Source: Octopus vulgaris (Eukaryota). Taken from it: a stretch of 26,525 bases of DNA. The notes beneath the pieces are model-generated. The model searched no databases. It saw only the letters and a program-made list of their open reading frames with translations, and was not told the DNA's origin. Position numbers and translations under genes: made by a program. The stretch spans positions 1 through 26,525 of the forward strand of contig CATOCA020000039.1 in assembly GCA_951406725.2 (NCBI GenBank). The letters are read 5' to 3'. Shown one piece after another: positions 481 through 25,262 of the stretch (the first letter of the stretch is position 1; each line of letters starts with the position of its first letter).

Positions 481-7257
<6,777 letters not shown>

Positions 7258-7279
7258 GACATACTATATATACATAATT

Positions 7280-8120
7280 ATGCCTTAAGATTATAAATAA
7301 CGATTTTTATACACTTTAATATATATAGTAATATTGTTAACATATTTTCAGATACTCTATCTCCTAATTAGCCTTAAGATTAAATTAAATAACGTTTAAT
7401 ATTACCCACACTCTAATATAATATTAATATTGCTAATATATTTTCAGATACTCTATCTCCTAATTAGCCTTAAGATTAAATTAAATAACGTTTTTTTTTT
7501 ACCCACAAACTTTAATATTGTTAATATTTTTTTTTTTTTTAAATACTCTATCTTCTAATTAGCCTTAATATCTTCTTGTCTTCTCTCGAACATAGTTAGA
7601 TAGATAAACAAATAGACAGATCATCCAGCATGTCCAGAGCATGGAGACCTGACGAACTAGATTAATATTCGTACGAGCCTGGAAGTGTGCCGACGGAGAT
7701 AGCCCTAGCGAAGTGATTGCGGCTGCGCTGAAGATTAAAGGCTACAATAACGACAGCGGCTCAGATGGATAATAGAGACGGGAATATCGTGCGCTCATAT
7801 GCGGTTATATATATATTCATATATGCCATCTTCTAATTAGCGGGGCAAAGATGGCAAAATAACGATATATTATAAGTCTAATTACGCCTCTAATATAATA
7901 TTAATATTGCTAATATATTTTCAGATACTCTATCTCCTAATTAGCCTTAAGATTAAACAACGTTTTTATCCACACTCTAATATAATATTAATATTGCTAA
8001 TACATTTTCAGATACTCTATCCCCTAATTAGCCTTAAGATTAAATAATGTTTTTATACAACCATTATTGTTAATATTTCTTTTTCAAGTACTCTATCTTC
8101 TAATTAGCCTTAATATCTTC
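7280..8120 (+). repeat. ~80-97-bp AT-rich tandem monomers in the LINE 5' region, two blocks of ~3
   Basis: Recurring TTTTCAGATACTCTATCTCCTAATTAGCCTTAAGATT; GCCTTAA anchors near 7282, 7371, 7467, 7562, 7944, 8030, 8107. Confidence 0.9.
7630..7860 (+). pseudogene. Degraded duplicate of the ORF1 N-terminus (Myb/SANT-like region)
   Basis: ATGTCCAGAGCATGGAGACCTGACGAACTAG... parallels 8174 onward; several indels. Confidence 0.8.
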
Positions 8121-8173
8121 CTGTCTCTCTCGAACATAATTAGATAGATAAACGGATAGACGAATTATCCAGC

Positions 8174-9135
8174 ATGTCCAGAGCATGGAGACGTGACGAG
8201 CTGGATTTATTCGTACGAGCATGGGAGTGCGCCGGCGGAGATAGCCTAGCGAGGTGATTGCGGCTGTGCTGAAGAGCAGAGGCTACAAGAGGACGGCGGC
8301 TCAGATGGAGCGAAAGAGACATGGAGACGTGACGAGCTGGATTTATTAGATAGATTGCGGCTGTGCTGAGGAATTCGTGCGCTCATATGCGCTTGTACGG
8401 TCGCACATTGGCGCACTTGATGCCATCTTTGAGAACGAGTGGGGCAAAGATGGCAAGAATGGAGACGATGAAAGAAGTCACCCCTACCTGGTGGACGCCC
8501 GGGAAGGTTTTGAATGAGAAACCTGCCCGGGAAGTTTACTTTCCAGGTGCAAGTTCTCCAACCGGCAGCAAGGGCCATGGAGACGGAGAACCCGGTGAAG
8601 AGGTAGAGGGAGGAAGAAGAACTAAAAGAAGGACTGGAAGAGCTAAAGGAAAAGAAAAAGCTCAAGCAGGACCAAAGAGTGAAACAACCAGAAATAGAAG
8701 TGGAACCGCAAAGGATGGAACCAAACAGCGCACACGGGTGTGTGCATGTTCTACCTGAGAGGTTCCTGCTGGCATGGAAAGGAAGGTGCAGGCTGCTGCT
8801 TTGCACATCGGGGACCCTGCCACAGAGACACGAGGCAGATGGACAAACCATCAACACAAAGAAAAGGGATGGACCACGCACCACCTGCCCCAAAGCGGAG
8901 GTACGCAGATGTTGTGCGCGCCACAAACAGCCAACATGATGTTGTCGAAAGAGCAGCTGCTGAGCAACAATCTTTTTTGTGCATGGCACAAAAGATTGTA
9001 CAGCAGCTGACCTGGCTTCATCAAACCCAAGCCCGCAGGTGGGACTACCCACTATATACCAGACCACCACAGCAAACAGACACAGGATGGACACCGCCGG
9101 CAACAACGTACACCTCACCTCGATACTCCTACTGA
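8174..9135 (+). pseudogene. LINE ORF1 (Myb/SANT-like + charged linker + CCCH finger), disrupted
   Basis: Manual translation MSRAWRRDELDLFVRAWECAGGDS/SEVIAAVLKSRGYKRTAAQMERKR; frameshifts at ~8245 and ~8740; ~50-bp self-derived insertion at ~8320-8368; CMFYLRGSCWHGKEGAGCCFAH at 8743-8808. Confidence 0.8.
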
Positions 9136-12081
9136 ACATCAGAGGACTGCAAACACTCAGTAACAGGACAAAGATCCCGTTCCTGAGAGACTTTGTTGCA
9201 TGCAATCAAGCCTTATGCATAGCACTTACAGAAACGCACCTGAAACCGGACATAGCAGATGCGGAGTTACACATACCACAGTATGCTGTACTACGGACCG
9301 ACAGGAAAGAAAGGAGTCATGGAGGTGTTGCTATGTACATCCGTGAGGACCTCACACCCCAGGTCCTCTTGTCATACTCAAACTCGGTGTGTGACACACT
9401 AATTGTACATATTAGGCAACTTGATGTAGTTGTGTGTGCTACATATCGCCCTCCAGATGCCCCAAGCCATGTGGGCAAGTTTGAAGACTGCCTTATAAAA
9501 ATAGAAGAAATTCTAACCACATTAGAACAACACATAGGTGTGCTTCTTATGGGAGACTTCAATCTGCCCAATGTCAGATGGCCCGAGGGCCTTTCTCTCC
9601 CAGGAATGACAAGATGTGAACGAGGACAGGCGAGGTCCCTCCTGAACCTCATCAACACCCTGTACATGGAGCAGGTAATACTCCAACCAACCAGGGCAGG
9701 TAACACACTGGATCTCTGCTTCACAAATGACATGGATCTCATCCATAATGTGAAAGTGACACCGACACTACTCTCGGATCACAACATGATAGAGCTGACC
9801 ATGTACGGGCCAAAAGAGAGCACGGACATGCAGCCTACAAGAAACCCTCAAAATCTTTCCAGCTTGAACTACCATAAGGCAAACTGGAAACAAATTGAGA
9901 AAGAGATCCTCAAACAAAACTGGCCTAAATGTCTCTCCTCGCCAGACATCGACGTGAAACTTCAACAATTCATGTCTGTAATGCAAGCCATATGCTACAA
10001 ATGTGTCCCAGAGAGAAAGGCCACTGTACACAAGAACAAAATCCCCAGAGAGAGGAAAATTTTAATGAGACGGCGTACGAAATTTTCAAATCGCCTAAAC
10101 AAACAGATTGAAAGCAGTGAAAAGTCCCGCCTAAAAATAAAACTGTTGGAAATCGAAAAATGTCTGCAACTCTCCCATGAAAAAGAAAGAGCAGACAAAG
10201 AAGCCTGGGCTATAGAAAACATAAAATCTAACCCCAGAGCTTTCTACAGGTATGCCAAAGAAACAGCTACAGTGCACTGTAGAATAGGGCCACTCCTCGA
10301 AAAGGATGGCACACTTACAGGAAAACCAATGAGGGTAAGTGAAATACTGAATGAGCAATTCAAGAGTGTTTTCACTCCACCCCTTGGGCATCTCCAAATC
10401 ACCAATCCAACTGACTTTTTACCACTGCAGATATAAAATCAGAGGCGGCGACGATAGATTACATCGATATAAAGGAAGACGATGTAACCAAGGCTATAGA
10501 TGAAATGAAAACAGACTCAGCTACTGGCCCCGATGGATTCCCGGCAATCCTCCTAAAAGCATGTAAGAGAGTCCTAGCAAGACCACTGCAGTTCCTCTTT
10601 CAGAGCTTCCTTGCAGCTGGCAAACTTCCAGGAAAACTGAAGGAAGGTAAAATATGCCCCATTCATAAAGGAGGTAGCAGAGCGGAAGCCAAGAACTATA
10701 GACCTATCTCTCTGACCTCACACATCAGCAAGGTCATGGAACGAATAGTCAGAAGGAAGCTGATCACCTTCCTTGAAGAGAATGACTTGCTGCCCGACAC
10801 CCAACATGGTTTCCGACCAGGGAGAAGCTGTTTAACTCAGCTCCTACAACACTATGACTGGGTGCTGAAACGGCTGCTCAACCACTCAAATGTGGAAGTG
10901 ATATATCTCGACTTTGCAAAGGCCTTTGATAAAGTCGATCATGGAATGATATGTCACAAACTGCGTGATCTCAACATAGTTGGAAAACTGGGAGAATGGC
11001 TTCATGACTTTCTGAAGGATAGAAGTCAGGTGGTAGTAGCCAATGGGGCCACCTCCATTAACACACAAATAGTGAGCGGTGTTCCGCAGGGCACTGTTCT
11101 GGGACCACTACTGTTCATAATGGCCCTCTCAGACATGCCCTCAGCCACGCAGAGAGCCACGATCACAAGTTATGCAGATGATACAAAAGTTTCACAGGCA
11201 ATACAGAACCCTGAGGACACTAAACACCTGCAATGTGAGCTGGACGAAATATACAAGTGGGCTGAAAAGAATAGCATGCAGTTCAATGCTGGAAAGTTTC
11301 AAGCTTTATACTATCAGCATGCAAAACTGAATGCAATACCCAATGAATACACTGGACCCGGAGGGATTGCAATCCCAGAGGCACAATCAGTGCGTGACCT
11401 GGGTATTCACATGAGTGATGACGCGACCTTTCATGTACATGTTGCTAAACTGACAATGAAATGTAGACGGCTGGCTGGATGGATTCTTAGAACCTTTAGA
11501 ACAAGAGAACAAGAAACCATGATGGTCCTCTGGAAGACACTTGTCCTAAGCCACTTTGACTATTGCTCTCAGCTATGGTCACCATCCAGTGTCAAGTTGA
11601 TCACAGAACTTGAGGCGATCCAACGAAGCTACACAAAGAAGATAGCCTCTATGCAGAATGTAAGCTACTGGGAAAGACTCAAGAGATTAAAATTATATTC
11701 CCTGGAGCGTAGGCGGGAAAGATATGCCATAATATACATCTGGAAGATCCTGGAGGGAAGTGTCCTGAACTTTGGCATCGAGAGTTACGCAAATGCCAGA
11801 ACTGGGCGCCACTGCGTGGTGCCTAGGACTCCAAACCTGCCATCAAGATGTAGGACAAGATCTGTGATAGCCTGGGCTTCCGAGGCCCACAGCTCTTCAA
11901 TATCCTCCCGAAGAACCTGAGAGACCTGCATGGGGTGGATACAGATGTCTTTAAAATGAAGCTGGATCTCTTCCTGTCAGGTGTCCCAGATGAACCAACT
12001 TCACGGCAGGAGGGGCAGATGAGGGCAGCTGCATCGAACTCTCTCATGCACCAAATAGCAGTTGCTAGAAAGCCTCCATGA
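8964..12081 (+). pseudogene. LINE ORF2, APE endonuclease + reverse transcriptase, with two 1-bp frameshifts (~10420, ~11860)
   Basis: APE motifs LNIRGL, ALTETHL, YRPP, MGDFN, LDL, SDH; RT motifs [19 protein letters not shown]. Confidence 0.95.
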
Positions 12082-12162
12082 AGTGAAACCAAGTAGCAAC
12101 ACCAAATGGCATGGTGCCCCAGCATGGCCACAGCTCATAAGCTGAAACTAGAATCAATCAAT

Positions 12163-12508
<346 letters not shown>

Positions 12509-12598
12509 TTGATTGATTGATTGATTGATTCCAGTTTCAGCTCATGAGCTGTGGCCATGCTGGGGCACCGCCATTTGGTGTTGCTACTTGGTTTCACT

Positions 12599-15500
12599 TC
12601 ATGGAGGCTTTCTAGCAACTGCTATTTGGTGCATGAGAGAGTTCGATGCAGCTGCCCTCATCTGCCCCTCCTGCCGTGAAGTTGGTTCATCTGGGACACC
12701 TGACAGGAAGAGATCCAGCTCCATTTTAAAGACATCTGTATTCACCCCATGCAGGTCTCTCAGGTTCTTCGGGAGGATATTGAAGAGCTGTGGGCCTCGG
12801 AAGCCCAGGCTATCACAGAATCTTGTCCTACATCTTGATGGCAGGTTTGGAGTCCTAGGCACCACGCAGTGGCGCCCAGTTCTGGCATTTGCGTAACTCT
12901 CGATGCCAAAGTTCAGGACACTTCCCTCCAGGATCTTCCAGATGTATATTATGGCATATCTTTCCCGCCTACGCTCCAGGGAATATAATTTTAATCTCTT
13001 GAGTCTTTCCCAGTAGCTTACATTCTGCATAGAGGCTATCTTCTTGTGTAGCTTCGTTGGATCGCCTCAAGTTCTGTGATCAACTTGACACTGGATGGTG
13101 ACCATAGCTGAGAGCAATAGTCAAAGTGGCTTAGGACAAGTGTCTTCCAGAGGACCATCATGGTTTCTTGTTCTCTTGTTCTAAAGGTTCTAAGAATCCA
13201 TCCAGCCAGCCGTCTGCATTTCACTGTCAGTTTAGCAACATGTACATGAAAGGTCGCGTCATCACTCATGTGAATACCCAGGTCACGCACTGATTGTGCC
13301 TCTGGGATTGCAATCCCTCCGGGTCCAGTGTATTCATTGGGTATTGCATTCAGTTTTGCATGCTGATAGTATAAAGCTTGAAACTTTCCAGCATTGAACT
13401 GCATGCTATTCTTTTCAGCCCACTTGTATATTTCGTCCAGCTCATATTGCAGGTGCCTAGTGTCCTCAGGGTTCTGTATTGCCTGTGAAACTTTTGTATC
13501 ATCTGCATAACTTGTGATCGTGGATCTCCGCGTGGCTGAGGGCATGTCTGAGAGGGCCATTATGAACAGTAGTGGTCCCAAAACAGTGCCCTGTGGAACA
13601 CCGCTCACTATTTGCGTGCTAATGGAAGTGGCCCCATTGGCTACTACCACCTGACTTCTATTCTTCAGAAAGTCGTGAAGCCATTCTCCTAGTTTTCCAA
13701 CTATGCCAAGATCACGCAGTTTGTGACATATCATTCCATGATCGACTTTATCGAAGGCCTTTGCGAAGTCGAGATATATGACTTCCACATTTGAGTGGTT
13801 GAGCAGTTGTTTCAGCACCCAGTCATAGTGCTGCAGGAGCTGAGTTAAGCAGCTTCTTCCTGGTCGGAAACCATGTTGGGTGTCAGGCAGCAAGTCATTT
13901 TCTTCAAGGAAGGTGATTAGTTTCCTTCTGACTATTCGTTCCATGACCTTGCTGATGTGTGAGGTCAGAGAGATAGGTCTGTAGTTCTTGGCCTCCGCTC
14001 TGCTACCTCCTTTATGAATAGGGCATATTTTACCTTCCTTCAGTTTTCTTGGAAGTTTGCCAGCTGCAAGGAAGCTCTGAAAGAGGAACTGCAGTGGTCT
14101 TGCTAAGACTCTCTTACATACTTTTAGGAGGATTGCCGGGAATCCATCGGGGCCAATAGCTGAGTCTATTTTCATTTCATCTATAGCCTTTATTACATCG
14201 TCTTCCTTTATATCGATGTAATTTATCGTCGCCGCCTCTGATTCTATATCTGCAGTGGTAAAGAAGTCAGTTGGATTGCTGATTTGGAAATGCCCAAGGG
14301 GTGGAGTGAAAACACTCTTGAATTGTTCATTCAGTATTTCACTTACCCTCATTGGTTTTCCTGTGAGTGTGCCATCCTTTTCAAGGAGTGGCCCTATCCT
14401 ACAGTGCACCGTAGCTGTTTCTTTGGCATACCTGTAGAAAGCTCTGGGGTTAGTTTTTATGTTGTCTATAGCCCAGGCTTCTTTGTCTGCTCTTTCCTTC
14501 TCATGGGAGAGTTGCAGACAATTTTCAATTTCCAACAGTTTTATTTTCAGGCGGGACTTTTCACTGCTTTCAATTTGTTTGTTTAGGCGATTTGAGATTT
14601 TTGTGCGCCGTCTCATTAAAATTTTCTCTCTCTGGGGATTTTGTTCTTGTGTACAGTGGCCTTTCTCTCTGGGACACATTTGTAGCATATGGCTTGCATT
14701 ACAGACATGAATTGTTGAAGTATCATGTCGATGTCCGGCGAGGAGAGACATTCAGGCCAGTTTTGTTTGAGGATCTCTTTCTCAATTTGTTTCCAGTTTG
14801 CCTTATTGAAGTTCAAGCTGGAAAGATTCTGAGGGTTTCTTGTAGGCTGCATGTCCGTGCTCTCTTTTGGCCCGTACATGGTCAGCTCTACCATGTTGTG
14901 ATCCGAGAGTAGTGTCGGTGTCACTTTCACATTATGGATGAGATCCATATTATTTGTGAAGCAGAGATCCAGTGTGTTACCTGCTCTGGTTGGTTGCAGT
15001 ATTACTTGCTCCATGTACAGGGTGTTGGTGAGGTTCAGGAGGGACCTCGCCTGTCCTCGTTCACATCTTGTCATTCCTGGGAGAGAAAGGCCCTCGGGCC
15101 ATCTGACATTCGGTAGATTGAAGTCTCCCATGAGAAGTACACTTATGTGTTGTTCTAATGTGGTTAGAACTTCTTCTATTTTTAAAAGGCAGTCCTCAAA
15201 CTTGCCCATATGACTTGGGGCATCTGGAGGGCGATATGTAGCACACACAACTACATCAAGTTGCCTTATGTGTACAATTAGTGTGTCACACACCGAGTTT
15301 GAGTATGACAAAAGGACCTGGGGTGTGAGGTCCCCACGGATGTACATAGCAACTCCTCCATGACTCCTTTCTTTCCTGTCGGTCCGTAGTACAACATACT
15401 GTGGTATGTGTAATTCCGCATCTGCTATGTCCGGTTTCAGATGCGTTTCTGTGAGTGCTATGCATAAGGCTTGATTGCATGCGACAAAGTCTCTCAGGAA

Positions 15501-15716
15501 CGGGACTTTTGTCCTGTTACTGTGTGTTAGTAGTCCTCTGATGTTCAGTAGGAGCATCGAGGTGAGGTGTATGCTGTTGCCGGTGGTGTCCACCCTGGGT
15601 CCATCTGCTGTGGCGGTCTTGTGAACCGTGGGCAGTTCCATCTGCGAGCCTGAGCCTGATGGAGCCAGGTTAGCTGCTGTACAATCTTTTGTGCCATGCA
15701 CAAAAAAGATTCCTGC
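12599..15716 (-). pseudogene. LINE ORF2, APE + RT (~1040 codons when repaired), with two 1-bp frameshifts (~14625, ~13040)
   Basis: ORFs 14616-15701, 13036-14751 and 12599-13030 join into one protein collinear with copy 1. Confidence 0.95.
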
Positions 15717-16435
15717 TCAGCAGCTGCCCTTTCAACAACACGTTGGTGGTTTGTGGTACGCACCACATCTGCGTACCTCCGTTTTGGGGCAGGTGATGCC
15801 TGGTCCATCCCATTTCCTTTCGGTGGTTGGTTTCTGTGGCAGGGTCCCGGATGTGCAAAGCGGCAGCCTGCACCTTCCTCTCCATGCCGGCAGGCACCTT
15901 TCAGGTAGAACCTACATACCCGTGTGCGCTGCTTGTTTCCATCCTTTTTGGCATATGGACAGTTAGGTTTGCCTCATCCCTGGCTGCCTTGCCCCTTGGC
16001 TTTACCTCTGAGTTTTAGCTTCAGTTTTTCCTCTTTTTTGGCCTCTTCATCTCCATGTCCATGGCTTTTGGTGCCGGTAGGAGCATCCGTACCTGGGTTC
16101 ACCTCCCGGGCAGGCCTCTCGCTGGAGTTTTCTTCCTGGGCGTCCACCAGGTGGGGGTGACCCTCCTCATCTGCGCCCGCGTCTCCATCCTTGCCATCTT
16201 TACTTTGTTCGCGTTTTTCGCTGTTAAAAATGGCATCCAGTGTGTTTATGTGCGATCTGACAAGTGCGTATGAGCGTACGAACTCTTGCCTCTTCCGCTC
16301 TATTTGTGCTGACGTCCTTTTGAATCCGTTGTTCTTCAGCGCAGCCGTAATTATATTACTTGGACTTTCTCCGTCAGCGCATTGCCATCCTTGCAGGAAC
16401 CACGCCAGTTCATCACGTTTCCAAGCTCTGGACAT
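15545..16435 (-). CDS. LINE ORF1, 296 codons with one in-frame TGA (15974-15976): Myb/SANT-like domain, charged region, CCCH zinc finger
   Basis: ORFs 15974-16435 and 15545-15808 share a frame; the gap translates GSQG*GKPNCPYAKKDGNKQRTRVCRFYLKGACRHGEEGAGCRFAHPGPCHRNQPPKGNGMDQ; N-terminus WKRDELAWFLQGW...IITAALKNNGFKRTSAQIERKRQEFVRSY. Confidence 0.8.
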
Positions 16436-16447
16436 TCTTGATATATA

Positions 16448-17004
16448 ATCTATCTATCTAATTATGTTAAGTTATATTAATCCAATAGTAGGGGGTAATA
16501 GAGAAAGAGAGCGTCTATGTACTTAAGGAGAGATTGGGAGCCAAGAGAAGAGAGCAAGAGAGAAGAGGAAGGGGAGAGATATTTTGTCTATCTATCTATC
16601 TATCTAATTATATTAAGTTATATTAATCCAATAGTGCAATAGGGGGTAGGGGGGTAATAGAGAAAGAGAGCGTCCATGCACTTAAGGAGAGATTGGGGAG
16701 CCAAGAGAAGAGAGCAAGAGAGAAGAGGAAGAGGAGATACTGAGTGCTGAAGGAAGATAGAGAAAGCCTCTATGCCCTCAGAGAGAGATTGAGAGCTGAG
16801 AGAGGAGAGCTGAGACAGACAGAGAAGCGCAAGGGAGAGAACCGAAGAGACAGACAGAATTCTAAACGAAGTTGTTGGGCCAAGGAGGGGCGCAGGGAGA
16901 GAACTGAAGAGACAGACAGAGAAGCGCAAGGGAGGGAACTAAAGAGACAGACAGAGAAGGGCAAGGGAGAGAACTGAAGAGACAGACAGAATTCTAAACG
17001 AAGC
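16448..17004 (-). repeat. Duplicated GA/CT-rich units upstream of ORF1 (probable 5'UTR)
   Basis: ~16448-16580 repeated at ~16592-16740; GAGACAGACAGAGAAGCGCAAGGGAGAGAAC units and AGAATTCTAAACGAAG at ~16856 and ~16988. Confidence 0.8.
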
Positions 17005-17199
17005 TATTGGGACATACACATGTATACACACACACACACATACACACATGTACACACGTGTGCACATGCACATATATAGACAAGAGTAACAAGTGAGTAT
17101 ATAAAGAAACAAAAATAATAATGAAACATATATAAACATATATTACAAAACATATATAAACATATATTACAAAAGTAATAATAGTGAGAAATTATAAGA

Positions 17200-17370
17200 C
17201 AATAATAATAATAAAAATAAAACAGCTGAAAGAAAACAGGCCAGTAGGTTTTACAGAGTTTATATATATATATGTAGTATATACACACACACATATATAT
17301 ATATAACACACACATATATACACACACACATATATTTAACAAGTGATAATAATAATAGATAATAAAATAG

Positions 17371-17403
<33 letters not shown>

Positions 17404-17715
17404 AACCAGCTGAAAGAAAACAAGCTAAGAGATTTTACAGAGTTTGTACATATATATATAATATATACACACATATACAATACATATACACACACATATA
17501 TATCTAAGCAGAGGAAAAAGAGAAAAGGGAATATATACATTTGTCCGCCGCAACAGACAAATTCTTCTATAACAGAACTAATTGCGACTATACTTCTAAT
17601 AATAATAATAATAAAACAGCTGAAAGAAAACACGCCAGGAGGTTTACAGTTTAAGCAAAGAAAAAAAAAAAGAAATGGCAATATATATTTATTTCGCTAC
17701 AGACAATGTCTCTTA
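17200..17715. repeat. Degenerate ~170-230-bp tandem repeat, 3 copies
   Basis: (AAT)n-AAAACAGCTGAAAGAAAAC...TTTACAG at ~17200-17260, ~17370-17445 and ~17598-17652. Confidence 0.75.
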
Positions 17716-18170
17716 AGATAAACTACAATACGATTCTACTACTAACACACACACACATGCATGGATATATAGATATATACGCACATGTACGCATATACAT
17801 ATATAAACAGAGTAACAGGTAATTTATAGATAATAGATATAACGAAATTAACAGTAACAAGAATTTGTGATACGTTTTTGCGAGGATATAAACAGGAATT
17901 TGGGTACTTATCGACTGGAAATAAATTTAGAAGATTCCACGTGCGTTTCGGCAGAAAGAGATCTTTGTGTCAAAACTTGACTTGTGGCAGAAATATATTG
18001 CGATTTTTTAAGTAAATATCCAGGTACGCGTCTATAAAGTAACAATTTCTACGTTTTGTGAGTGATTTGCCAAGTTATTTCGTCGATTTTATGCAGCCCT
18101 TCTTGTTTTTTTATCGCAGAGCGAGACAACACGTGTTTACTCTACGAAAGCGGAAGTATATATATATATA

Positions 18171-22867: not shown

Positions 22868-25098
22868 ACTCTTTTACTTGTTTCAGCCATCCGGCTGAGG
22901 CCATGCTGGGGCACCGCCCTTGTTGCTACCCTCTCTAAGTCCAGTTTGCCGTAGCTGGCCACTGATCTAAGAGAGAGTTTGTAGTTGCTGCCCTTAGGTT
23001 ACCTTCGTACCTTGCAGTGGGTTCATCTGGGATCCCGGAAAGCAGCTTGTCTAGATGTTTTTTGAAAATGTCCACATCCGCATCATGTAGATCTCTTAGT
23101 TTTCTTGGCAGTTTGTTGAAAAGCTGAGGGCCCCTGAACCCCAGGCTATTACAGTATCTGCTCCTTACCCTGGATGTGGAAGACGGGACCTTTGGCACCA
23201 CACAGTGACGTCCTGTACGGGGATTGGAACAGCTCTCAATTCCAAAATTTGGTGCTAGTCCCTCCAGGATTGATTTCGATACTGGGATTTCGATCCCTCC
23301 TGGACCAGTATAGTTGTGTGTGTATATGTGTTTACAGCTTGATATTGTAAGGCTGAAATTTACCAGCATTACAAATTGCTGTTGTTGTCTTCAGCCCATT
23401 TGTATATGGCATCCAGATCTTGTTGTAAAGGTCAGCATCAGCTGGGTTTTTGATTGCCTGTGCTACCTTTGTGTCATCAGCATGGCTAGTGAGGGATGTT
23501 GTTTGTGCTACCAAGGGCATGTCAGAAGGCACAAAAACAGCAAGGGTCCCAAGACTGTGCCCTGTGGCCTTCAGCACTATTGGTGTCTTTCCCGAGAGGG
23601 CTCCATTGGCTGCAACCATCTGGCTTCTGTCCTTCAGGAAGTCATGTATCCACTCACTAGCTTTTCCCATATTGCCTTCCCAGTCTGAGTAATTTGTGAC
23701 ATATCATCCTTGGTCGACTTTGTCAAGGCCTTCTTAAAGTCGAGATATACCACATCCACCTGTGAGCAGTCAAGTGATTGTTTCAGTACCCAGTCGTAGT
23801 GTTGTAACAGCTGCGTAAGGCAGTAACTTCCTGGGCAGAAAGCCATCACTGTGTGTCAGTGAGACGGTTAGTTTCTTCGAGGAAGACGTGATCAGTTTTT
23901 CTGATGATTCGTTCCATGACCTTACTTATGTGTGACGTCAGGGAGACTGGCCTGTAGTTTTTGGCCTCTGCTCTACTCCCTCCTTTGTGGATGGGGCATA
24001 TGGTGCCTTCATGACGCCCTGGGCAGTTTACCGTTGGCAAGGAACACTTTGAAGAGCTTCTAACAGTGGTCCCGCTGAGCATGCCTGCATGTTTTGGAGA
24101 ACTGCTGGAGTCCCATCTGGTCCAGCAGCTGAGTTTTATTCTCATTTCTTCTATGGCAGATATTACATCCCTCTCTGTTATGTCTATGTAATTCAGTGGT
24201 TGTTTGTTTGGTTTGTGGTGTTTGGCATCCAAAGAAAACTTCTGGGTTTTGTGGTTTGCATGGCACTTTGGGGGATGTGAATAAAGCTTTTATACTGTTC
24301 CTTTAGTATTTCACTTATCCCTTGGGGGTCCCTCCAGTTAGAGAGCCCTTTTTATCCAAAGAGTGGGCCAATCTTGCAGTGTACCGAGGTGGTTTCTTTC
24401 TACAAATTTAAAGAAGGCTTTGGGGTTTGTTTTAATATTCTCTATGGCCCTGGCTTCTCTCTCTGCCCTCTACTTCTCATAGGAAAGGTTTGAGTGCAGT
24501 TTCCGTTTTCAAAAAGTTTCAGGTGGAGTCCTCATTGTTTCTCTTGCATTGATTGCTTCAGAGAGCTTCATCTTCACTGTAAGTATTTTCCTGTCTCTGG
24601 GAACATTTGTTCCTTGCCCATGTTTCTCTGAGATTGAGCTGCTGGCATATGTTCTGTATTGTTGTCATGAAATGTTGGAAATGTGTGTTGGTGTCTTGAC
24701 CTTCAGTGATGAGTCTCCAGTCATGTTTTCGGATCTCTTCGTTGATCTTCTTCCAGTTTGCCTTATGGAAGTTTAGACTGGATAGGCCTGTGGTATTTTC
24801 TAATGGCTGCGTCTCAACTAACTCTCTCATACTATATCATTACCTCCCCTAACAGTTGTGAGTCAGAGAGAATTGTTGGTGTTACCATTATGTTGTGGAT
24901 GAGCATCAGGTTGCTTGTGAAACAGAAGACCAAGACATTCTCACCTCTTGTTGTAAAAGCACTGCTTGCTCCATCAGAAAAACTTGCGTGTGAGAGCCAA
25001 CAAGGGCTCTGTCTGTCTCTGTTCAAGTGATGTCATTCCAGGGAGAATGTATCTAATGCATTTGACTTTTCGGAAGGTTAGTCTCCCAGCAGCAGTAG
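22868..25098 (-). mobile_element. 5'-truncated, internally deleted, indel-rich LINE with a family B 3' end
   Basis: 22868-23270 is the reverse complement of ~62-464 with ~3 substitutions; RT remnants (NYRPVSLTSH, VYLDFKKA, HADDT) and APE C-terminal remnants (LLLGD, ILSDS); (TA)n on both sides. Confidence 0.92.

Positions 25099-25262
<164 letters not shown>

Follow-up and report, generated by a model that had tools for sequence, protein, structure and literature searches.

How the second open reading frame (ORF2) of a LINE is translated is an old question, and experimental answers exist for few elements (L1, SART1 and Zorro3), all of which make separate proteins. A −1 frameshift is stated to be needed in Dictyostelium TRE5-A and TRE3-A (relevant passage of PMC5911963) and is stated, within gag, for Drosophila HeT-A (PMC5009743), and a −1 overlap is described in a passage on R1B (PMC2718515). 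In the portion of the 2016 frameshifting review covered here (PMC5009743), HeT-A is the sole non-LTR element named and L1 is treated as a case of initiation; further passages on prior knowledge come from PMC1965478, PMC1925062 and PMC13343379. Within these passages, we found −1 frameshifting demonstrated at the ORF1-ORF2 junction of no animal LINE, the Dictyostelium TRE elements and HeT-A being the stated precedents. The words "frameshift", "slippery" and "overlap" have 0 occurrences in the main text of a 2026 survey of the vertebrate CR1 group. Our literature search, conducted outside subscription papers, Repbase Reports and older element descriptions, returned no report of a slippery heptamer in CR1 LINEs and, within the same scope, none of (TA)n targeting by them. 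Overlapping ORFs of CR1/T1 elements are reportedly described in older papers.

The window analyzed here, a stretch of 26,525 nt from Octopus vulgaris, contains LINE copies set among (TA)n arrays (Table 1). On the basis of sequence comparison, we propose that the LINE represented by copies 1 and 2 probably employs programmed −1 ribosomal frameshifting, by which an ORF1-ORF2 fusion of ~1,280 aa would be produced.

Table 1. Features of the LINE copies in the window (positions refer to the whole stretch).
Feature	Position	Strand	Remarks
Family B copy, 5′-truncated	4130..6240	+	Junction missing; right end approximate
5′ UTR of copy 1 (A1)	7311..8173	+	~87-96-nt tandem repeats; exact 5′ end not fixed
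Copy 1 (subfamily A1)	8174-12160	+	APE and RT domains
ORF1 of copy 1	8174..9135	+	Indels at 8245, 8321, 8505, 8540 and 8744
CCCH zinc finger of ORF1	8743..8808	+	From reading of the ORF; Pfam zf-CCCH below cut-off in relatives
Hairpin with the heptamer in its 5′ arm	8954..9009	+	Inner stem 8967-8999
TGA closing the −1 (ORF2) frame	8961..8963	+	Three codons 5′ of the heptamer; likewise in A2, B and D, not in C
ORF2 of copy 1	8964..12081	+	1-nt losses near 10416 and 11862
ORF1/ORF2 overlap of copy 1	8964..9135	+	Both frames open
Slippery heptamer T_TTT_TTG	8973..8979	+	Candidate −1 shift site; ORF1 phase tcT TTT TTG (Ser-Phe-Leu)
ATG in the ORF2 frame of copy 1	9087..9089	+	Sole one before APE; arises from Gly-Trp of ORF1; ORF1 stop 46 nt farther 3′
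3′ UTR and (ATCA)n tail of copy 1	12082..12160	+	Tail runs into (TA)n
Copy 2 (subfamily A2)	16435-12522	−	APE and RT domains
ORF2 of copy 2	12599..15716	−	Broken near 14625 and 13045
ORF1 of copy 2 (A2)	15545..16435	−	Broken at 16039, 16006 and 15975
Heptamer T_TTT_TTG of copy 2	15701..15707	−	TGA 15717-15719 before the heptamer
Family C relative, decayed, 5′-truncated	22935..25100	−	Junction missing; 5′ end approximate

Copies 1 and 2 are arranged tail to tail around a single (TA)n array (12160-12520). Their 5′ UTRs (7311-8056 and 16480-17800) are long, contain tandem repeats and are unlike between the subfamilies; TRF arrays were found at 7311-7568 and 7888-8056 in that of copy 1, and the intact copy L105 is similar upstream. 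Both copies are dead: compared with intact relatives, copy 1 differs by 8 indels plus 13 substitutions and copy 2 by 5 indels plus 28 substitutions. Their subfamilies are young and abundant, as indicated by 1,764 and 1,640 first-look candidates in the 2.8-Gb genome, the best 40 of which show 99-100% identity. Because 85% of alignment columns across ORF1 and the junction are identical between the two copies, and the ORF2 proteins of A1 and A2 are 95% identical, they do not constitute independent evidence. Database relatives of ORF1 carry the species names Octopus vulgaris and O. sinensis, and P0002 matches the genome at 100%. The last 80 aa of P0001, a database protein of O. sinensis named LPIN3, belong to the ORF1 described here, and this segment is probably a gene-model artefact or an exonisation.

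ORF2 has the order APE then RT, with PF14529, PF03372 and PF00078 above the Pfam cut-off; in copy 1, Exo_endo_phos_2 and RVT_1 were matched at E values of 2e-12 and 7e-31, respectively. By eye, the RT of copy 1 differs by one residue from the printed stretch of O.sinensis_36_LINE, a cluster listed together with O.sinensis_21, 54 and 104_LINE as Jockey/CR1 in the tree-based Table S7 of Martelossi et al. (2023; PMC10294476). Grouping of the RT with the CR1 clade was made through this near-identity to classified O. sinensis clusters, our own tree being one without named references. We also found 5′-truncated copies, short-repeat 3′ tails specific to each family and no LTRs, as in the CR1 clade, and by these sequence features the window elements are classified as a young octopus LINE of that clade.

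In intact copies, ORF1 comprises 296-303 aa and the ORF2 frame 1,039 codons from stop to stop. ORF1 is composed of a weak Myb/SANT-like N-terminus, one CCCH finger and a conserved C-terminal motif. A sequence-only reading made before this analysis had labelled the first two parts "Myb" and "CCCH", and both labels are retained in weakened form: PF13837 matched in 5/6 cephalopod-type ORF1s but only at E 0.002-0.04, below the cut-off, and a single finger is supported by a match to the MBNL1 fingers at E 0.001, although Pfam stays below its cut-off there too. Atlas look-alikes of the Myb region score 0.80-0.84, and an Atlas search with the whole ORF1 gave no match. The ORF1s of non-octopus relatives have tandem CCCH-type fingers, some with a PHD in addition. 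The described ORF1 types of CR1 elements are esterase, PHD, RRM/CCHC and L1-like, and the octopus ORF1, with its weak Myb/SANT-like part and one CCCH finger, fits none of them. A term count in the main text of PMC4120745 gave 0 occurrences each for "CCCH" and "Myb". Given that ORF1 of the CR1 group is described as modular in the passages at hand, the atypical ORF1 leaves CR1 membership intact.

We then compared the junction among copies. In copy 1, ORF1 continues beyond the heptamer for 51 codons to the TGA at 9133-9135, and the −1 frame stays open into APE, with 57 ORF2 codons before the first APE Asn. All coordinates given in the sequence-only reading for the two TGA codons (8961-8963 and 15717-15719) and the two TTTTTTG runs (8973-8979 and 15701-15707), as well as the phase tcT TTT TTG, were reproduced, and its claim that both frames remain open for ~50 codons agrees with the 51 further ORF1 codons and the open −1 frame counted here. 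The site therefore has the form of a canonical heptamer, X_XXY_YYZ in the phase of the upstream ORF with the downstream ORF in −1. A G at position Z is less typical as the last heptamer base in eukaryotes. The layout of A1 (TGA, three codons, T_TTT_TTG, then 51 codons of ORF1 with the −1 frame open) was present in 30/30 best loci, and the same TGA, T_TTT_TTG and open −1 frame in 29/30 best loci of A2, the exception being a copy that had lost one T; note that these loci were chosen at 99-100% identity and hence are not independent. The layout is a feature of the family and not an error of one copy, and the loci, having been picked for identity, are silent on selection.

Families B, C and D were traced from the two other window elements and from P0002 to fuller copies, and their ORF2s are 74%, 65% and 72% identical to that of A1, respectively. 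The fuller copies of family B have T_TTT_TTG, and family D has T_TTT_TTA in 14/14 rows printed from 20 loci. In family C, Arg-Asn-Phe provides A_AAT_TTT one codon upstream with the phase unchanged. A slippery heptamer stands at the site in 158/161 octopus rows when all stored rows, duplicates included, are counted; L040 and L064 are single copies in which a T was lost from the run. For the ORF1s P0021, P0023 and P0025, with Ser-, Ala- or Asn-Phe-Leu at the site, the queries used found no close families in the genome.

More distant relatives were collected by an APE alignment search, which supplied 84 loci: the 80 top-ranking ones among 151 metagenome matches, and 4 from the genome collection. 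An in-phase T_TTT_TTA is present in each of the ten best of the 80, whose APE identity is 31-37%, and L221/L222 have A_AAA_AAC. L221 and L222, as well as L223 and L224, are LINE DNA within bacterial genome bins, probably as eukaryotic contamination; among viral contigs, no relative was found. In a midpoint-rooted FastTree tree of 47 sequences and 686 columns, limited to loci whose ORF2 reaches 600 aa, the relatives that qualify group with the octopus families in a single clade (support 0.999). An in-phase X_XXY_YYZ lies within the overlap in 13/13 family representatives with a readable junction, which correspond to ~8 lineages by our own grouping; L153, L177 and L218, which have too little sequence or a break at this point, stand outside this count. 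The classes are T_TTT_TTG, T_TTT_TTA, A_AAT_TTT and A_AAA_AAC, so that one slippery class is swapped for another while heptamer and phase are kept across families, a test on which the sequence-only reading had staked its proposal. The point at which the −1 frame opens lies 0-7 codons 5′ of the heptamer in 11/13 representatives, and the frame continues for 23-143 codons to the ORF1 stop. The layout of the clade is thus two ORFs with a −1 overlap, a heptamer in phase and no conserved start codon.

Codon choice at the site was also examined. Phe-Leu is encoded in slippery form in 11/11 cases at the junction versus 0/57 elsewhere in the same elements; Asn-Phe of family C and Lys-Asn of M8 are slippery-coded elsewhere in 4/30 and 9/48 cases, respectively, and these two are individually weak cases. 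When ORF1 residues were fixed and codons resampled synonymously, the probability of a heptamer at the site was 0.006-0.30 per family. The residue preceding Phe-Leu varies (Ser, Asn, His or Ala), and its codon ends in T every time. The heptamer is accordingly conserved beyond the constraint on the protein. Synonymous conservation around the heptamer gave small counts with no clear excess, and when the octopus families were taken by themselves, openness of the −1 frame as far as the Gly-Trp site described below was not significant (P 0.18-0.71).

An improbable alternative, yet the one with most in its favor, is that ORF2 has a start of its own at an ATG or GTG that arises from Gly-Trp of ORF1 (in copy 1, at 9087). 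Initiation there would be internal or would follow termination at the ORF1 stop, 46 nt downstream, the octopus heptamer being a relic or a minor route. This site is ATG in A1, B and D and GTG in A2 and C, always with A/G at −3 and G at +4, so that an RTG in good context is present in 5/5 octopus families, and Gly codons end in a purine in just 46-60% of cases in these families. The claim of the sequence-only reading that no ATG is shared holds but needs a supplement: copy 1 has its ATG at 9087 and copy 2 has ORF2-frame ATGs at 15641 and 15557, but copy 2 has a GTG (15591-15593, minus strand) at the site of copy 1's ATG, and the RTG in its A−3/G+4 context is shared. In A1, a plain ATG lies 16 codons before the APE Asn, A and B are without a stimulator, and precedents are described for SART1 (reinitiation; passage of PMC10275272) and L1 (AUG-independent initiation; passage of PMC5009743). 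Both routes could be usable in A1. On the other hand, the RTG of the octopus families precedes the ORF1 stop by 46-79 nt and, in the four of them whose ORF1 is whole, has 14-23 ATGs upstream of it; it is the nearest shared one, and coupling of the SART1 type, with an ORF2 AUG overlapping the ORF1 stop (UAAUG), was not found. The site is only GTG in 2/5 octopus families and is missing in M4 and M7, which also have no CTG or GTG before the APE Asn. The interval from heptamer to APE Asn is without ATG in C, M3, M4 and M7, and M2 and M6 have one solely at −1; in family C the first APE Asn comes 10 residues earlier than the first ORF2 Met. No ORF2 ATG is therefore conserved across the clade, which was the outcome that the original proposal of frameshifting had called for. 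In addition, a start at Gly-Trp leaves unexplained both the synonymous choice at Phe-Leu and the A_AAT_TTT of family C.

A separate observation was made in family C, where an allele at two loci with different 5′ ends (L081/L265 at G000:C41 and L264 at G000:C20) has ORF1 and ORF2 in one frame as the result of a small replacement at the Gly-Trp site, with 1,327 codons open at G000:C41. This allele hints that an ORF1-ORF2 fusion is tolerated, conversion or trans-mobilisation being possible as well.

The 84 loci were also surveyed irrespective of family. After removal of 21 redundant loci, 63 remained, among which 28 were without a long overlapping ORF, 13 had a long N-terminal extension and 22 had an ORF of at least 100 codons that spans the ORF2 start, the frame of ORF2 being −1 in 20 of these pairs and +1 in 2. 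Among the −1 pairs, 16/20 have a strict heptamer in phase versus 1/20 and 3/20 in the other phases; when published XXX exceptions were allowed, the numbers were 19/20 versus 2/20 and 10/20. The expected number was 2.9 (48 per 12,511 codons), giving P 1e-11, or 1e-7 at a doubled rate, values affected by the fact that the 20 loci are not fully independent lineages. The heptamer was missing at L179 (−1 overlap) and at L166 and L208 (+1 overlaps). Behind esterase, PHD and other ORF1 types, the heptamers were G_GGA_AAC, T_TTA_AAC and A_AAA_AAC, which are listed among the shiftiest on mammalian ribosomes in a passage of PMC5009743.

Several groups of loci in this survey are worth recording. Four metagenome loci with an esterase ORF1 (L163, L196, L197 and L200) have T_TTA_AAC directly followed by TAG at the ORF1 end, with ORF2 in −1. 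In a lineage whose ORF1 C-terminus reads ...NFRFLVVG (L152, L159, L164, L160, L173, L175, L182, L193 and L215), G_GGA_AAC or G_GAA_AAC starts the −1 overlap. A_AAA_AAC was seen at L188, L190, L210 and L211, and A_AAT_TTA at L151. Eight CR1-like loci (L154, L156, L157, L158, L169, L170, L217 and L219) have the ORF2 frame open for 190-280 codons upstream, with a PHD-like Cys/His pattern by eye in this extension, and were read as single-ORF relatives in which the N-terminal domain is pre-fused to APE.

The phase dependence found in the survey bears on a further explanation, namely that the frames are joined in the RNA by a polymerase that slips on the T6 run and adds one U. A six-T run is indeed present in A, B, D and most relatives, T-loss copies exist (L040 and L064), and such slippage is hard to tell from frameshifting, HIV RT also slipping at the HIV shift site (passage of PMC5009743). 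However, RNA slippage needs no codon phase, the heptamers are specific to one, and A_AAT_TTT, G_GGA_AAC and T_TTA_AAC in relatives are no long homopolymers; moreover, contigs from four runs guessed to be RNA show no insertions or deletions at the run, with the proviso that contigs drop rare variants. We consider this explanation very unlikely. The sequencing-run search found no RNA run with the element among the matches listed. It is hardly credible, finally, that the arrangement is a coincidence. On this reading, Phe-Leu would be conserved only because an ORF1 helix begins there, the −1 overlap would have arisen by chance, and translation of ORF2 would occur by AUG-independent reinitiation near the ORF1 stop, as in L1, or on a transcript that is spliced or sub-genomic. 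In its favor, the octopus ORF1 stop lies directly at the first APE motif and the ORF1 motif is conserved as protein. It is opposed by the codon controls, by a heptamer class that changes while the phase stays, by an ORF1 stop >120 codons before APE in M2, and by guessed-RNA contigs (showing neither strand nor expression) that bridge the junction without a joint.

RNA structure around the site differed among families. A hairpin had been drawn at 8967-8999 in the sequence-only reading; it is present in copy 1 and extends to 8954-9009 (z = −4.0, 0/200 shuffles as stable; z = −2.1 in copy 2), but it is not conserved. By family, z was −4.6 in A1, −2.6 in A2, −4.3 in B and about +1 in D and C, where the hairpin is unstable, and 0/25 pairs were compensatory, so that it was rejected as a conserved structure. 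With the heptamer buried in it, the enclosing hairpin is at most like the 5′-3′ anchoring helix of HIV, in which the 5′ and 3′ flanks of the shift site are paired (passage of PMC5009743). On the 3′ side in A1, A2 and B, no stable hairpin or H-type pseudoknot was found to start 5-9 nt after the heptamer (z +0.4 to +1.7), and pseudoknot prediction gave none in 5/5 octopus families, in agreement with the initial remark that a canonical downstream stimulator could not be identified. The 3′ structure is weak in D, and a longer-range fold in C is limited to the widest window used. In M2, M5 and M6 (3/13), a hairpin of 7-8 bp lies 7 nt 3′ of the heptamer with z of −2.2 to −3.3. An HIV-like cassette of T_TTT_TTA, a 7-nt gap and a 7-8-bp hairpin was seen at L143:779-850, L146:710-780 and L147:740-810. 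Long-distance pairing with the 3′ UTR was also considered and rejected, as the best UTR duplex ranks 3-46 of ~320 windows in 9 families and the partners differ.

As the heptamer is kept in phase at the ORF overlap, ribosomes likely slip back by one base there. Under the proposed frameshifting, ribosomes starting at the ORF1 AUG would mostly read ~300 aa and end at the TGA at 9133, and in a minority, after ~250 aa, the Phe and Leu tRNAs would re-pair in −1 on U_UUU_UUG, these ribosomes then passing through a linker of ~50 aa into APE-RT. A ratio like that of gag and gag-pol would be obtained from one RNA, with the endonuclease-RT as the C-terminal part of a fusion in the order Myb/SANT-like domain (weak), CCCH finger, linker, APE and RT. 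For the four families in which ORF1 is complete, its predicted size is 1,279-1,292 aa, in line with the ~1280 aa first suggested. Because no 3′ stimulator was found in octopus family A, shift efficiency may be low, and it is perhaps tuned by the enclosing hairpin. More speculatively, the endonuclease of the fusion would have the Myb-like and CCCH domains in cis, an arrangement that could account for insertion into (TA)n.

Regarding this setting, families A, B and C, and D to a lesser extent, lie in (TA)n microsatellites, and each octopus family has its own short-repeat tail. TA-rich sequence was found at 22/31 5′ break points and 49/65 3′ ends, counts that stand without a genome TA background and cover loci L061-L120, L238-L257 and L264-L266 together with the whole window. 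That the fused Myb-like domain causes the TA-repeat location is speculation. We also regard as doubtful the broad form of the proposal, in which two-ORF CR1-group LINEs across animals would frameshift to a gag-pol-like fusion whatever their ORF1 (CCCH/PHD, esterase or PHD/coiled-coil), and the Myb-like domain held in cis in the octopus fusion would aim a genome-dominating LINE at (TA)n. The sequence comparisons nevertheless suggest that a large group of animal LINEs probably uses the retroviral solution for ORF2. If true, the actual retrotransposition enzyme would be ORF1-ORF2, the modular domains of ORF1 could directly steer RNA binding and target choice, and first-ATG annotations of ORF2 would be wrong, at the cost of the first APE motif in family C. 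As the signal consists of 7 nt inside a 170-nt cassette, the proposal is cheap to test, and many natural frameshift cassettes are supplied, some apparently without a local stimulator.

Compared with described elements, the closest in sequence are the O. sinensis CR1 clusters of PMC10294476, whose RT is near-identical and in whose main text "frameshift" occurs 0 times and "ORF1" once. RTE-2_OV of Octopus vulgaris shares APE and RT; identity with it was rejected because it belongs to the RTE clade and has a single ORF of 1,109 aa (relevant part of PMC9115989). TRE5-A/TRE3-A, HeT-A and R1B are of other clades, and the cited passages on them contain neither a conserved heptamer nor a comparative test. 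L1, SART1 and Zorro3 resemble the octopus LINE in having a bicistronic RNA with a low output of ORF2. Unlike the octopus proposal, L1 and SART1 use AUG-independent initiation or reinitiation and make a separate ORF2 protein (passages of PMC5009743 and PMC10275272), and in Zorro3, as described in the passage available, the ORFs do not overlap and ORF2 requires its own ATG. The octopus junction differs from gag-pol in that it belongs to a non-LTR APE-RT element without a protease to cut the fusion, in that no 3′ stimulator was found in the octopus families, and in that its shift is a predicted one. It is like retroviral and gypsy gag-pol in having X_XXY_YYZ in the upstream phase, a pol-like ORF in −1 and no need for a start codon. 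The U_UUU_UUA of HIV-1 (passage of PMC5009743) is identical to the heptamer in family D and in 7/8 non-octopus representatives, and in one lineage (M2/M5/M6) the likeness to HIV-1 extends to a hairpin 7 nt downstream.
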